Part shown: piece after piece, positions 1,816-11,448 of the stretch
Layout of the letters: each line of letters starts with the position of its first letter
Position numbering within the stretch: position 1 is the first letter of the stretch
Origin: a virus
Taxonomy: Duplodnaviria; Heunggongvirae; Uroviricota; Caudoviricetes
IMG/VR virus record: IMGVR_UViG_2690316318_000003
Strand: one strand, 5' to 3'
Length of the DNA stretch: 11,451 nucleotides
Translations under genes and position numbers: made by a program
Notes under the pieces: model-generated
The model's database searches: none
What the model saw: the letters and a program-made list of their open reading frames with translations, nothing else
Told to the model about the DNA's origin: nothing

Positions 1816-3115
1816 TCTCCCGCATATTGCCAGCATGGCCTTTAATGAGCCGCTGATGCTTGAACCCGCCTATGCGCGGGTTTTCTTTTGTGCGCTTGCC
1901 GGCCAGCTTGGGATCAGCCGCCTGACGGATGCGGTGTCCGGCGACAGCCTGACTGCCGGAGAGGCACCCGCGATGCTGGCGTTATCCGGTAATGATGACG
2001 GACCACGACAGGCCCGCAGTTATCAGGTCATGAACGGCATCGCCGTGCTGCCGGTGTCCGGCACGCTGGTCAGCCGGACGCGGGCGCTGCAGCCGTATTC
2101 GGGGATGACCGGTTACAACGGCATTATCGCCCGTCTGCAACAGGCTGCCAGCGACCCGATGGTGGACGGCATTCTGCTCGATATGGACACGCCCGGCGGG
2201 ATGGTGGCGGGGGCATTTGACTGCGCTGACATCATCGCCCGTGTGCGTGACATAAAACCGGTATGGGCGCTGGCCAACGACATGAACTGCAGTGCAGGTC
2301 AGCTGCTTGCCAGTGCCGCCTCCCGGCGTCTGGTCACGCAGACCGCCCGGACAGGCTCCATCGGCGTCATGATGGCTCACAGTAATTACGGTGCTGCGCT
2401 GGAGAAACAGGGCGTGGAAATCACGCTGATTTACAGCGGCAGCCATAAGGTGGATGGCAATCCCTACAGCCATCTTCCGGATGACGTCCGGGAAACACTG
2501 CAGTCCCGGATGGATGCAACCCGCCGGATGTTTGCGCAGAAGGTGTCGGCATATACCGGCCTGTCCGTGCAGGCCGTGCTGGATACCGAAGCTGCAGTGT
2601 ACAGCGGTCAGGAGGCCATTGATGCCGGACTGGCTGATGAACTTGTTAACAGCACCGATGCGATCACCGTCATGCGTGATGCACTGGATGCACGTAAATC
2701 CCGTCTCTCAGGAGGGCGAATGACCAAAGAGACTCAATCAACAACTGTTTCAGCCACTGCTTCGCAGGCTGACGTTACTGGCGTGGTGACAGCGACGGAG
2801 GGCGAAAACGCCAGCGCGGCGCAGCCGGACGTGAACGCGCAGATCACCGCAGCGGTTGCGGCAGAAAACAGCCGCATTATGGGGATCCTCAATTGTGAGG
2901 AGGCCCACGGACGTGAAGAACAGGCACGCGTGCTGGCAGAAACCCCCGGTATGACCGTGGAAACGGCCCGCCGCATTCTGGCCGCAGCACCACAGAGTGC
3001 ACAGGCGCGCAGTGACACTGCGCTGGATCGTCTGATGCAGGGTGCACCGGCACCGCTGGCTGCAGGTAACCCGGCATCTGATGCCGTTAACGATTTGCTG
3101 AACACACCAGTGTAA
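1796..3115 (+). CDS. C: prohead protease / minor capsid protein gpC, S49 (SppA-like) serine peptidase family (439 aa)
   Basis: Same frame as track ORF 1661..3115, but start placed at GTG 1796, which is preceded by GAGGAGGA (1783-1790) and gives the lambda gpC length; the track ORF start lies deep inside B. Putative nucleophile Ser in the NCSAGQ motif (codon 166, nt 2291-2293). Overlaps the B 3' end by 20 nt. Confidence 0.85.
2510..3115 (+). CDS. nu3: scaffolding protein gpNu3, in-frame internal start within C (201 aa)
   Basis: ATG at 2510 in the C reading frame, sharing the C stop at 3113-3115; Ala/Gln-rich C-terminal segment typical of a scaffold. Start chosen by analogy to lambda; no strong Shine-Dalgarno visible, so the exact start is uncertain. 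Confidence 0.6.
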   Translation: MDATRRMFAQKVSAYTGLSVQAVLDTEAAVYSGQEAIDAGLADELVNSTDAITVMRDALDARKSRLSGGRMTKETQSTTVSATASQADVTGVVTATEGENASAAQPDVNAQITAAVAAENSRIMGILNCEEAHGREEQARVLAETPGMTVETARRILAAAPQSAQARSDTALDRLMQGAPAPLAAGNPASDAVNDLLNTPV

Positions 3116-3457: not shown

Positions 3458-3477
3458 CCTGACCCTTCATCACTAAA

Positions 3478-3499
3478 GGCCGCCTGTGCGGCTTTTTTT
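3478..3499 (+). terminator. intrinsic-terminator-like hairpin downstream of D (GCCGC-CTGT-GCGGC stem-loop followed by T7)
   Basis: Read directly: stem gccgc (3479-3483), loop ctgt (3484-3487), stem gcggc (3488-3492), then a run of 7 T (3493-3499), located 21 nt after the D stop. Confidence 0.45.
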
Positions 3500-3512: not shown

Positions 3513-4538
3513 ATGTCGATGTACACAACCGCCCAGCTGCTGGCGGCAAATGAGCAGAAATTTAAGTTTGATCCGCTGTTTCTGCGTCTCTTTTTCCGTG
3601 AGAGCTATCCCTTCACCACGGAGAAAGTCTATCTCTCACAAATTCCGGGACTGGTAAACATGGCGCTGTACGTTTCGCCGATTGTTTCCGGTGAGGTTAT
3701 CCGCTCCCGTGGCGGCTCCACCTCTGAATTTACGCCGGGATATGTCAAACCCAAGCATGAAGTGAATCCGCAGATGACCCTGCGTCGCCTGCCGGATGAA
3801 GATCCGCAGAATCTGGCAGACCCGGCTTACCGCCGCCGTCGCATCATCATGCAGAACATGCGTGACGAAGAGCTGGCCATTGCCCAGGTCGAAGAGATGC
3901 AGGCCGTTTCTGCCGTGCTTAAGGGCAAATACACCATGACCGGTGAAGCCTTCGATCCGGTTGAGGTGGATATGGGCCGCAGTGCGGCGAACAACATCAC
4001 ACAGTCCGGTGGCACGGAGTGGAGCAAGCGTGACAAGTCCACGTATGACCCGACCGACGATATCGAAGCTTATGCGCTGAACGCCAGCGGTGTGATTGAT
4101 ATCATCGTGTTTGATCCGAAAGGCTGGGCGCTGTTCCGTTCCTTCAAAGCCGTCAGTGAGAAGCTGGATACCCGCCGTGGCTCTCATTCCGAGCTGGAGA
4201 CAGCGGTAAAAGACCTGGGCAAAGTGGTGTCTTATAAGGGAATGTATGGCGATGTGGCCATCGTCGTATATTCCGGACAGTACGTGGAAAACGGCGTCAA
4301 AAAGAACTTCCTGCCGGACAACACGATGGTGCTGGGTAACACTCATGCACGCGGTTTGCGCACTTATGGCTGTATTCAGGATGCGGATGCATTGAGTGAG
4401 GGTATTAATGCGTCTCCCCGTTATCCGAAAAACTGGAAGACATCCGGCGATCCGGCGCGAGAGTTCACCATGATTCAGTCAGCACCGCTGATGCTGCTGG
4501 CTGACCCTGATGAGTTCGTGTCCGTACAACTGGCGTAA
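3513..4538 (+). CDS. E: major capsid protein gpE (341 aa)
   Basis: Track ORF 3486..4538; start placed at ATG 3513 (MSMYTTAQLLAANEQKFKFDPLF...), giving 341 aa as in lambda gpE; stop TAA 4536-4538. Confidence 0.92.
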   Translation: MSMYTTAQLLAANEQKFKFDPLFLRLFFRESYPFTTEKVYLSQIPGLVNMALYVSPIVSGEVIRSRGGSTSEFTPGYVKPKHEVNPQMTLRRLPDEDPQNLADPAYRRRRIIMQNMRDEELAIAQVEEMQAVSAVLKGKYTMTGEAFDPVEVDMGRSAANNITQSGGTEWSKRDKSTYDPTDDIEAYALNASGVIDIIVFDPKGWALFRSFKAVSEKLDTRRGSHSELETAVKDLGKVVSYKGMYGDVAIVVYSGQYVENGVKKNFLPDNTMVLGNTHARGLRTYGCIQDADALSEGINASPRYPKNWKTSGDPAREFTMIQSAPLMLLADPDEFVSVQLA

Positions 4539-4563
4539 AAATGGCCCTTCGGGGCCATTTTTT
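4537..4563 (+). terminator. terminator-like hairpin immediately after E (7-bp stem, UUCG tetraloop, A-run / T-run flanks)
   Basis: Read directly: aaaa (4537-4540), stem atggccc (4541-4547), loop ttcg (4548-4551), stem gggccat (4552-4558), T-run to 4563. Perfect inverted repeat. Confidence 0.5.
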
Positions 4564-4579
4564 CTCTGTGGAGGAGTCC

Positions 4580-4975
4580 ATGACGAAAGATGAACTGATT
4601 GCCCGTCTCCGCTCGCTGGGTGAGCAACTGAACCGTGATGTCTGCCTGACGGGGACGAAAGAAGAACTGGCGCTCCGTGTGGCAGAGCTGGAAGAAGAGC
4701 TTGATGACACGGATGACACTGCCGGTCAGGACACCCCTCTCAGCCCGGAAAATGTGCTGACCGGGCATGAATATGAGGTGGTATCAGCGCAGCCGGGTAC
4801 CGTGACTGATACGGCTGCTCTGGTCACGGTCGTGGCACTGGTGACGCTGCATACTGATGCACTTCACGCCACGCGGGATGAGGCTGTGGCATTTGTGCTG
4901 CCGGGAACGGCGTTCCGTGTCTCTGCCGGTGTGGCAGCTGAAATGACAGAACGCGGCCTGGCCAGAATGCAATAA
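4580..4975 (+). CDS. FI: DNA packaging / head assembly accessory protein gpFI (131 aa)
   Basis: Same frame as track ORF 4541..4975; start placed at ATG 4580 preceded by GGAGGAG (4570-4576); the upstream ATG at 4541 lies inside the hairpin and lacks an RBS. Acidic, Glu/Asp-rich protein positioned as in lambda. Confidence 0.85.
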   Translation: MTKDELIARLRSLGEQLNRDVCLTGTKEELALRVAELEEELDDTDDTAGQDTPLSPENVLTGHEYEVVSAQPGTVTDTAALVTVVALVTLHTDALHATRDEAVAFVLPGTAFRVSAGVAAEMTERGLARMQ

Positions 4976-5885: not shown

Positions 5886-6277
5886 AACATACTGATATCC
5901 GTGCAGCCGTACTGGATGCACTGGAGAAGTATAACACCGGGGCGACGTTTTTTGATGGTCGCCCCGCTGTTTTTGATGAGGCGGATTTTCCGGCAGTTGC
6001 CGTTTATCTCACCGGCGCTGAATACACGGGCGAAGAGCTGGACAGCGATACCTGGCAGGCAGAGCTGCATATCGAAGTTTTCCTGCCTGCTCAGGTGCCG
6101 GATTCAGAGCTTGATTCGTGGATGGAGTCCCGGATTTATCCGGTGATGAGCGATATCCCGGCACTGTCAGATTTGATCACCAGTATGGTGGCCAGTGGCT
6201 ATGACTACCGGCGCGACGATGATGCGGGCCTGTGGAGTTCAGCCGATCTGACTTATGTCATTACCTATGAAATGTGA
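5882..6277 (+). CDS. U: tail terminator protein gpU (131 aa)
   Basis: ORF 5882..6277; ATG 5882-5884 overlaps Z stop TGA 5883-5885; 131 aa as in lambda gpU. Confidence 0.92.
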
Positions 6278-10750: not shown

Positions 10751-11448
10751 TGCAGGATATCCGGCAGGAAACACTGAATGAATGCACCCGTGCGGAGCAG
10801 TCGGCCAGCGTGGTGCTCTGGGAAATCGACCTGACAGAGGTCGGTGGAGAACGTTATTTTTTCTGCAATGAGCAGAACGAAAAAGGTGAGCCGGTCACCT
10901 GGCAGGGGCGACAGTATCAGCCGTATCCCATTCAGGGGAGTGGTTTTGAACTGAATGGCAAAGGCACCAGTACGCGCCCCACGCTGACGGTTTCTAACCT
11001 GTACGGTCTGGTCACCGGCATGGTGGAAGATATGCAGAGTCTGGTCGGCGGAACGGTGGTCCGGCGTAAGGTTTACGCCCGTTTTCTGGATGCGGTGAAC
11101 TTCGTCAACGGAAATATCGAGGCAGACCCGGAGCAGGAGGTGATCAGCCGCTGGCGCATCGAGCAGTGCAGCGAACTGAGCGCGGTGAGTTCCTCCTTTG
11201 TACTGTCCACGCCGACGGAAACGGATGGCGCTGTTTTTCCGGGGCGTATCATGCTGGCCAACACCTGCACCTGGACCTATCGCGGTGATGAGTGCGGTTA
11301 TCACGGTCCGGCGGTCGCGGATGAATATGACCAGCCGACGTCCGATATCACGAAGGATAAATGCAGCAAATGCCTGAGCGGCTGTAAGCTCCGTAATAAC
11401 GTCGCCAACTTTGGCGGTTTTCTGTCCATCAACAAACTTTCGCAGTAA
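10750..11448 (+). CDS. L: tail tip protein gpL with C-terminal cysteine cluster (232 aa)
   Basis: ORF 10750..11448; ATG 10750-10752 shares one nt with M stop TGA 10748-10750; 232 aa as in lambda gpL; Cys at residues 173, 182, 205, 208, 212. Confidence 0.9.
   Translation: MQDIRQETLNECTRAEQSASVVLWEIDLTEVGGERYFFCNEQNEKGEPVTWQGRQYQPYPIQGSGFELNGKGTSTRPTLTVSNLYGLVTGMVEDMQSLVGGTVVRRKVYARFLDAVNFVNGNIEADPEQEVISRWRIEQCSELSAVSSSFVLSTPTETDGAVFPGRIMLANTCTWTYRGDECGYHGPAVADEYDQPTSDITKDKCSKCLSGCKLRNNVANFGGFLSINKLSQ

Follow-up and report, generated by a model that had tools for sequence, protein, structure and literature searches.

A conserved terminator-like hairpin closes the major capsid cistron in the late operon of a lambda-like Escherichia coli prophage

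Hairpins that are built like intrinsic terminators and lie inside an operon, behind a capsid gene, form an ordinary and long-recognised class of elements. The element described here belongs to this class, and current views of it stand. The closest phage cases are T-phi of T7, the corresponding terminator of LUZ100 and the terminator of the procapsid module of the P22-like phage L, all of which resemble our hairpin in following directly after the most expressed structural gene within the late block. For such capsid-gene terminators either partial read-through or no known role has been reported (PMC10134795; PMC8022706). T7 and LUZ100 differ from the locus studied here in that they transcribe from a local promoter with a phage-encoded RNA polymerase, and there is no sequence relationship, whereas lambda-type phages use the host polymerase, made terminator-resistant by Q.

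Another comparison is offered by mRNA-stabilising stem-loops between bacterial cistrons, the malE-malF REP element and the Rhodobacter puf hairpin. In these, as at our locus, a stable hairpin lies between a highly expressed upstream cistron and a weakly expressed downstream one, and the stem is conserved without a U-tract. However, by eye the hairpin looks unlike the REP consensus, and its stabilising effect is putative. A search of Rfam at a permissive E-value returned matches at chance level only (best 13-17 bits against gathering thresholds of 34-50, E at least 0.8).

The lambda late operon is expressed as one long antiterminated transcript whose protein yields differ about a thousand-fold, E being the most abundant late protein, and polymerase modified by Q resists hairpin terminators over tens of kilobases. 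The late genes form one 27-kb PR' transcript (PMC10695390). In the GenBank records of lambda and 434 the hairpin that follows E is not annotated, and no paper specifically describing it was found in a literature search whose reach ended short of several key lambda papers.

The E-FI junction and its hairpin

The window analysed here is a stretch of viral DNA of 11,451 nucleotides (IMG/VR record IMGVR_UViG_2690316318_000003). Judged by its ORF layout and by the 93% nucleotide identity of the E-FI region to lambda, it is the late head and tail region of a lambda-like E. coli prophage. The open reading frames follow the order W, B, C/Nu3, D, E, FI, FII, Z, U, V, G/T, H, M, L, and those from FI through L, downstream of the hairpin, lie on the same strand as E. 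The chromosome of E. coli 377323_2f matches the window at 100% over 201 bases around the hairpin and carries a prophage there. In this prophage a co-oriented gene for 'antitermination protein Q' lies about 11.6 kb upstream of the hairpin; behind it come tRNAs, the lysis genes, terminase and the genes for head and tail, without a change of strand. The position of this Q gene and the common orientation of the genes agree with the sequence-only reading from which this work started, which had placed the hairpin in an antiterminated late operon. No promoter-like site was found in the window between the hairpin and position 10831. The E-FI junction is present in 3,204 of 5,426 complete E. coli genomes. 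Its features in the window are as follows.

3513 to 4538, plus strand: major capsid gene E, with a translation of 341 aa and the stop codon TAA at 4536-4538; annotated by RefSeq as 'major capsid protein' in the identical chromosome.
4570 to 4582, plus strand: ribosome-binding site and start of FI, with GGAGGAG at 4570-4576 and ATG at 4580; the RefSeq start of FI is the same ATG.
4541 to 4558, plus strand: conserved core hairpin ATGGCCC-UUCG-GGGCCAU, with 7 bp (4541-4547 paired with 4552-4558) and the loop at 4548-4551; RNAalifold gives the same 7 pairs.
4537 to 4562, plus strand: allele-specific extended stem, 11 bp and perfect, with four extra A-U pairs (4537-4540 with 4559-4562); it overlaps the stop codon by 2 nt.
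4558 to 4563, plus strand: T6 run, the U-tract, whose first T is also the outermost 3' base of the 7-bp core stem; tail score 4.74.
4537 to 4541, minus strand: A5 run, read from the minus strand as a T-tract, TTTTTACGCC (d = 12.8, see below); absent from lambda and from nearly all relatives.

The element consists of AAAAATGGCCC at 4537-4547, TTCG at 4548-4551 and GGGCCATTTTT at 4552-4562, followed by T4563; written from the E stop onward it reads TAA-AAATGGCCC-TTCG-GGGCCATTTTT-T. The core stem begins 2 nt past the E stop, contains five G-C pairs and is closed at the loop as C(UUCG)G. The initial description of a perfect 7-bp stem with a UUCG loop directly after the E stop was thus exact, and the folding energies bear it out. 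On the plus strand the fold reached -17.6 kcal/mol over 41 nt (z = -4.6) and -16.0 kcal/mol over 27 nt (z = -3.5), and on the minus strand -16.0 kcal/mol (z = -5.7), with 0 of 200 shuffles as good in each case. Elsewhere in the window the only perfect-stem hairpin to reach -15 kcal/mol on the plus strand lies inside E, at 4239-4274, and the minus strand of the window holds no other of this kind.

The ATG at 4541 lies inside the stem and in frame with FI. A hidden N-terminal extension of FI from this codon was considered and rejected: it has no SD sequence before it and is hidden within the stem, other alleles have GTG in its place, it is missing from other genera where the spacer differs, and RefSeq starts FI at 4580. 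A site for RNase III was rejected as well, a stem of 11 bp being too short for this enzyme.

Terminator likeness and sister hairpins

Terminator likeness was expressed as a score, d, which combines the hairpin energy per nucleotide with a weighted T-tail and for which all truncations of the stem were tried. The formula is of the d'Aubenton-Carafa 1990 type; it was checked against lambda and used for ranking only. The hairpin ranked first in the window on the plus strand (d = 36.9), and its minus-strand reading ranked fourth overall (d = 12.8). The top lambda hairpins in the same scan had d = 29.6, 25.0 and 22.4; by their place on the lambda map, we take these to be t_oop, tR2 and tL1. They resemble the E-FI hairpin in having a G+C-rich stem of 6-8 bp, a loop of 4-8 nt, 5-6 T and comparable scores. 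They differ in that they end transcription units or are N-antiterminated early terminators, and stand clear of the preceding stop codon, whereas the E-FI hairpin abuts a heavily translated gene in an operon antiterminated by Q, and its U-tract is not kept in relatives.

In its anatomy the window allele agrees with an intrinsic terminator, for which a G+C-rich stem of about 5-14 bp and a loop of 3-8 nt are expected: the stem has 7 or 11 bp, the loop 4 nt, and the U-tract TTTTTTCTC follows GGGCCA. The tail score of this T6 run is the highest among E. coli-class alleles. A terminator scan of the window based on maximal stems did not list the site, since the 11-bp stem swallows the T-run and leaves TCTCTGTG as the residual tail. 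A Term-seq dataset is available for EHEC Sakai (PMC7547250).

The E-FI hairpin of lambda (J02459 7163-7180) is the ortholog of the one in the window: the gap is likewise 41 nt long, the core ATGGCCC-TTCG-GGGCCAT again starts 2 nt past the E stop, and the ribosome-binding site of FI is the same. It differs in having TAATC upstream, TTGTTTC downstream and a stem of 7 bp; its plus-strand score is marginal (d = 9.7), and its minus-strand score is -28.

Further terminator-like hairpins accompany the E-FI hairpin in the window.

3475 to 3499, plus strand: hairpin AAAG-GCCGC-CUGU-GCGGC-U7 in the D-E gap, upstream of E; d = 22.2; in lambda at 6101-6114.
1865 to 1880, plus strand: third terminator-like hairpin, 50 nt past the stop of the portal gene.

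The D-E hairpin is a more canonical terminator-like hairpin than the E-FI one. It is conserved in more than 130 loci and has a compensated variant, GGCCGC-ATGA-GCGGCC. In the lambda late region five plus-strand hairpins have d > 0, namely those after B, in the D-E, E-FI and I-J gaps and after J, and none on the minus strand does. Since the D-E hairpin precedes E, the genes FI through J are essential, no promoter-like site follows before 10831 and there is a single PR' transcript, these hairpins cannot be efficient stops for Q-modified polymerase. The D-E hairpin also bears on the proposal that the E-FI hairpin raises the abundance of D and E transcripts. As D has a downstream hairpin of its own, the main beneficiary of the E-FI hairpin would be the E segment.

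Conservation of the stem and of the U-tract

For the comparison, 314 loci that encode a relative of E were gathered from IMG/VR and from a set of genomes with one per species, and the stretch behind each capsid-gene stop was taken. Of 113 distinct downstream sequences, 111 have a hairpin of -8 kcal/mol or stronger. By identity of the capsid protein, the hairpin and the terminator-grade T-tract (d > 0) are distributed as follows.

At least 96% identity: hairpin in 29/29, T-tract in 26/29.
80-93% identity: hairpin in 72/72, T-tract in 28/72.
60-79% identity: hairpin in 5/6, T-tract in 2/6.
Below 60% identity: hairpin in 5/6, T-tract in 1/6.

The stem is thus kept where the U-tract is not, which argues for a conserved function independent of canonical termination. 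That selection keeps the stem and not the U-tract is the usable clue from this comparison.

All E. coli-type alleles have a gap of 41 nt and retain the core ATGGCCC-TTCG-GGGCCAT; the variants include an A>G change at the first stem base, which gives a G-U pair, and the loops UUAG and UUCU. The tail after the stem is TTTTCTC in the commonest allele, TTGTTTC in lambda, and TTGTCTC in others. In other Enterobacteriaceae, whose E is 84-88% identical, the flanks and spacer lengths vary while GGCCC-N4-GGGCC stays, and the outer pairs are compensated (GTGGCCC/GGGCCAC, CGGCCC/GGGCCG, ACGGCCC/GGGCCGT, TTGGCCC/GGGCCAA). The largest clade outside E. coli has GGCCC-UGCG-GGGCC followed by CUGUUCC, with flanks and loop varying and the stem constant. 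In distant relatives (E 68-74% or about 42% identical) the stems occupy the same position but are unrelated in sequence, as in TGGTCCC/GGGGCCA, GGGGC/GCCCC, GGCTCC/GGAGCC at locus L320, CATGCCCC/GGGGCATG at L318 and AAAAAGGGGCGC/GCGCCCCTTTTT at L139.

Covariation was assessed in 51 distinct sequences, aligned on the GGCCC/GGGCC core as anchor; at identities of at least 73% this anchor failed in one sequence only. Columns 5-22 hold GU 15, AU 14 and GC 11 times, and columns 6-21 hold UA 35, CG 7 and UG 1 times. Paired cells amounted to 95%, against 55-57% with the partner shifted by one column, and the covariation score was above that of all 500 shuffles. The RNAalifold consensus of the 51 relatives is the same 7-bp helix. 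The inner five pairs are invariant among relatives at least 84% identical, where only the outer two covary, so that the evidence from covariation rests on two pairs together with the non-homologous replacement of the stem in distant relatives.

As the G-U pairs fit only RNA of the plus strand, the object of selection is a structure of the late transcript, and not DNA or an antisense RNA. A DNA palindrome or protein-binding site was rejected on these grounds, with G-U pairs in 15 distinct alleles and the sequence replaced in distant relatives. The loop is C(UUCG)G in the window and in most E. coli alleles; relatives also have UGCG and UCCG, of the same UNCG class, and further UGUC, UGUU, AUUC, UUUC, UUAG, GCA and AGCA. 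Since it varies to this extent, the loop sequence appears to be dispensable. We conclude that the element is conserved at the RNA level, in structure, in position and by covariation on the plus strand, and that its U-tract is variable.

What would be expected of a stabilising hairpin in its structure, that is, a stable stem-loop that ends the more highly expressed cistron and is itself conserved, is found here. The sequence-only reading had favoured a stabilising or read-through element over a plain stop. The near-universal stem, the T-tract frequencies of the two closest classes (26/29 and 28/72) and the terminator-like hairpin upstream of E agree with that preference, while the mechanism itself stays putative.

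Proposed function and alternative explanations

Our preferred reading, which we hold tentatively, is that of a terminator-type hairpin bypassed with the help of Q, whose conserved role would be that of a barrier to 3' exonucleases for the capsid segment and whose secondary role would be to stop unmodified, untranslated transcription. We infer the read-through by Q, the barrier to exonucleases and the termination of unmodified polymerase. An intercistronic stem-loop built like an intrinsic terminator would close the major capsid cistron of lambda-type late operons. During lytic growth, Q-modified RNA polymerase would pass through the hairpin, which would then fold within the late mRNA of roughly 25 kb. 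After endonucleolytic cuts farther downstream, it would halt 3'-to-5' exonucleases, and the E segment would outlive the FI and tail segment. To a polymerase with neither Q nor a close ribosome, as in leaky or spurious transcription in a lysogen, the hairpin and U-tract would present a real terminator, and the U-tract and stem of the window allele look unusually good in this capacity. Together with its sister before E, the conserved hairpin behind the capsid gene is a candidate for the means by which segments of the late mRNA survive differently or depend on Q.

Some points weigh against a stabilising function. Ribosomes terminating on E must melt the 5' arm, which may weaken the role as a barrier. 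Work by Sampson et al. in PNAS in 1988 is said to have found that differences in the yield of lambda late proteins come mainly from translation initiation and not from the mRNA level, which counts against a stabiliser. This reading and the alternatives below are not mutually exclusive.

It is possible, though we consider it somewhat unlikely, that the hairpin acts solely as an insulator, an intrinsic terminator selected to stop polymerases without Q that read in from upstream or start spuriously in a lysogen. The head-completion and tail genes downstream would thereby be strictly Q-dependent, and the stability and ratios of late mRNA would be unaffected. The full terminator anatomy, present here and in 26 of the 29 close alleles, fits such a role, as does the bias of the lambda late region, with its five terminator-like hairpins on the plus strand and none on the minus strand. 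The same role was proposed for the intra-operon terminators of phage L, although their roles are called unknown there (PMC8022706). Against this stand the 80-93% class, where 44 of the 72 distinct sequences have the stem but no terminator-grade U-tract, and the place of the hairpin within ribosome reach of the stop codon. In all relatives at least 80% identical, 1-12 nt separate its 5' base from the stop codon, and in the window the extended stem overlaps the stop. In E. coli in vivo, a stop codon placed 5 nt from tR2 cuts termination from about 90% to less than 10%, and uncoupled translation restores it (PMC4824070). The clearance of about 10-15 nt or more from a terminating ribosome is absent here, this clearance being a condition of efficiency on translated RNA and not a strict mark of the terminator family. 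Ribosome proximity thus leaves the hairpin poorly placed to terminate on translated RNA and free to do so on untranslated RNA.

A partial attenuator, in which a fraction of the Q-modified polymerases would stop and FI and the tail genes would be lowered relative to D and E by the logic of T-phi in T7, appears unlikely to us. The hairpin does stand after the most abundant structural gene, as in T7 and LUZ100 (PMC10134795), inefficient terminators are known to tune gene dosage in phages (PMC9163698), and the score of the T6 allele matches those of strong lambda terminators. However, E is itself preceded by a terminator-like hairpin at least as good, which would make such attenuation pointless; conservation of the U-tract is poor, and the tail genes downstream include the abundant V. 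The resistance of Q-modified polymerase to hairpin terminators also speaks against attenuation.

An effect on translation seems to us just as unlikely as attenuation. The hairpin would block ribosomes from sliding out of E and re-initiating at FI, and may shield the FI ribosome-binding site from long-range pairing, so that the output of FI would be set independently of that of E and far below it. FI is indeed needed in far smaller amounts than E, as established for lambda. The conservation of the stem without the U-tract is consistent with this idea, and the SD and start codon of FI lie in a small hairpin of their own, at 4568-4581. The distance from the hairpin to the FI start is 18-21 nt in most of 103 distinct sequences, and is thus tighter than the distance to the E stop. 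This tighter spacing fits a role in FI translation and the barrier to exonucleases equally well; moreover, the same spacing would result if hairpin, U-tract, SD and spacer were simply packed as closely as possible, and in distant relatives the hairpin lies 29-30 nt or more before the next start.

The 5' arm lies within the footprint of a ribosome terminating on E, and for this reason we also considered a ribosome-gated checkpoint, in which polymerase would enter FI and the tail genes only with capsid translation close behind and would otherwise terminate. We regard it as improbable. If it were true, transcription of the head-completion and tail genes would be coupled to capsid translation, independently of Q.

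The sequence-only reading had further noted that the structure resembles a terminator on either strand. For the window allele this holds, both strands scoring as terminators, with A5 at 4537-4541, T6 at 4558-4563 and a minus-strand fold of -16 kcal/mol. The likeness to bidirectional intrinsic terminators, pairs of which are described in phage LUZ7 (PMC9163698), extends to the A5, the 11-bp palindromic stem and the T6. Such terminators, however, usually lie between convergent genes, whereas the genes of the window are co-oriented and almost no relative has the A-tract. The exact window allele was found in 2 of 5,426 complete E. coli genomes, in 2 of the 314 loci and in one IMG/VR contig. Its differences from the commonest allele are three substitutions (TC>AA, C>T), all of which lengthen the stem, and the 11-bp extension is unpaired in most relatives. 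In lambda, the minus-strand reading scores as a non-terminator. No convergent or antisense gene is annotated over 28 kb; between terminase and the tail fibres, and over about 14 kb downstream, all annotated genes share one strand. The bidirectional look is a private quirk of a rare allele and not a property of the element, and the terminator likeness of the opposite strand in this allele is probably incidental. A two-way insulator selected between the head and tail modules of this prophage is very improbable, since the scores on both strands (d = 36.9 and 12.8) and the stem-extending direction of all three substitutions are set against the rarity of the allele, the lack of convergent or antisense genes over those 28 kb and the lambda minus-strand score.

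A recombination joint of mosaic phages at the hairpin was considered and rejected, as the two partial BLAST matches that might indicate one are insertions of IS4. In phage PhiR70_1 and in E. coli ECO_2_R, IS4 lies exactly inside the E-FI hairpin, with a 12-bp target duplication, GGCCCTTCGGGG. The insertions are on different alleles, one with A and the other with G at the first stem base. The insertion makes PhiR70_1 a natural mutant that has lost the E-proximal hairpin, and if this phage grows normally, the hairpin is dispensable. In E. coli N3, IS4 interrupts a different terminator hairpin of the cUUCGg kind, CCGCCC-TTCG-GGGCGG-T7, which lies between two fumarase genes, and the junction of GCCCTTCGGGG with IS4 was found in 127 genomes. 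This suggests that IS4 prefers the cUUCGg terminator-type hairpin as a target.

Terminator-like hairpins along the late operon

The hairpin that directly follows the E stop codon has a sister just 5' of the capsid gene, in the D-E gap, which also carries an A-run and a T-run (AAAG-GCCGC-CTGT-GCGGC-TTTTTTT). By our own hairpin and T-tail score, used for ranking only, this sister ranks above the E-FI hairpin of lambda. More than 130 loci keep it, non-E. coli classes among them, and a compensated variant (GGCCGC-ATGA-GCGGCC) was also found. Every positive-score terminator-like site that the scan returned in the lambda late region is co-oriented with transcription. These sites are listed below, followed by one further hairpin of the window, which lies within E.

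Hairpins of the window and of lambda
Window 3475-3499 (core 3479-3492, T7 3493-3499); lambda 6101-6114: terminator-like hairpin with A-run and T-run, D-E gap
Window 1865-1880; lambda 4487-4502, + strand: hairpin with T-run within gene C, 50 nt 3' of the stop of portal gene B
Lambda 15466-15479, + strand: hairpin with T-run, I-J gap
Lambda 18920-18935, + strand: hairpin with T-run, 3' of J
Window 4239-4274, + strand: of all perfect-stem hairpins in the window the strongest (-17.6 kcal/mol, G-U pairs included), within the E coding region

IS4 insertions in cUUCGg hairpins

The insertion sequence IS4 was found exactly within the E-FI hairpin, flanked by a 12-bp target duplication (GGCCCTTCGGGG), and two different alleles of the hairpin have been hit. 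After insertion, the only intact hairpin copy is the FI-proximal one. The GCCCTTCGGGG/IS4 junction is present in 127 E. coli genomes. IS4 also lies in another cUUCGg terminator hairpin. This hairpin type appears to be a target of the element.

Loci with IS4 in a hairpin
L344 159-1640: E-FI hairpin, phage PhiR70_1 (PV340577.1)
L345 1296-1380: E-FI hairpin, E. coli ECO_2_R
L346 1690-3160: cUUCGg terminator hairpin in the gap that separates two fumarase genes (CCGCCC-TTCG-GGGCGG-T7), E. coli N3

The FI start region

A second, small hairpin contains both the Shine-Dalgarno sequence and the start codon of FI, and this predicted structure may keep FI translation low.

Window 4568-4581: small hairpin GUGGA-GGAG-UCCAU

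An ATG at 4541, within the E-FI hairpin, is in the FI frame, which is free of stops up to FI (4541-4579), and a start there would lengthen FI by 13 residues (MALRGHFFSVEES). We rejected this start, since it lacks a Shine-Dalgarno sequence, lies hidden within the stem, and in other alleles reads GTG or is missing; the RefSeq start of FI is at 4580.

Prophage neighbourhood and lambda E in other assemblies

In the E. coli 377323_2f prophage (L343), upstream of the region matching the window, the head of the late operon carries tRNA genes directly 3' of the Q gene.

L343 2691-3000: four tRNA genes (Ile, Lys, Thr, Gly)

Beyond its tail fibre genes, this prophage has a gene for a T3SS effector of the NleG family.

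Near-identical copies of lambda E (protein 93-100% identical across the matched part) were also collected from genome contigs (loci L086-L101 and L117-L155) of assemblies that bear the names Neobacillus, Kitasatospora, Bradyrhizobium, Shewanella, Paenibacillus and Akkermansia, among others. The contigs are short, several being titled with about 1x coverage, and the copies most likely represent lambda DNA contamination or spike-in rather than real prophages.
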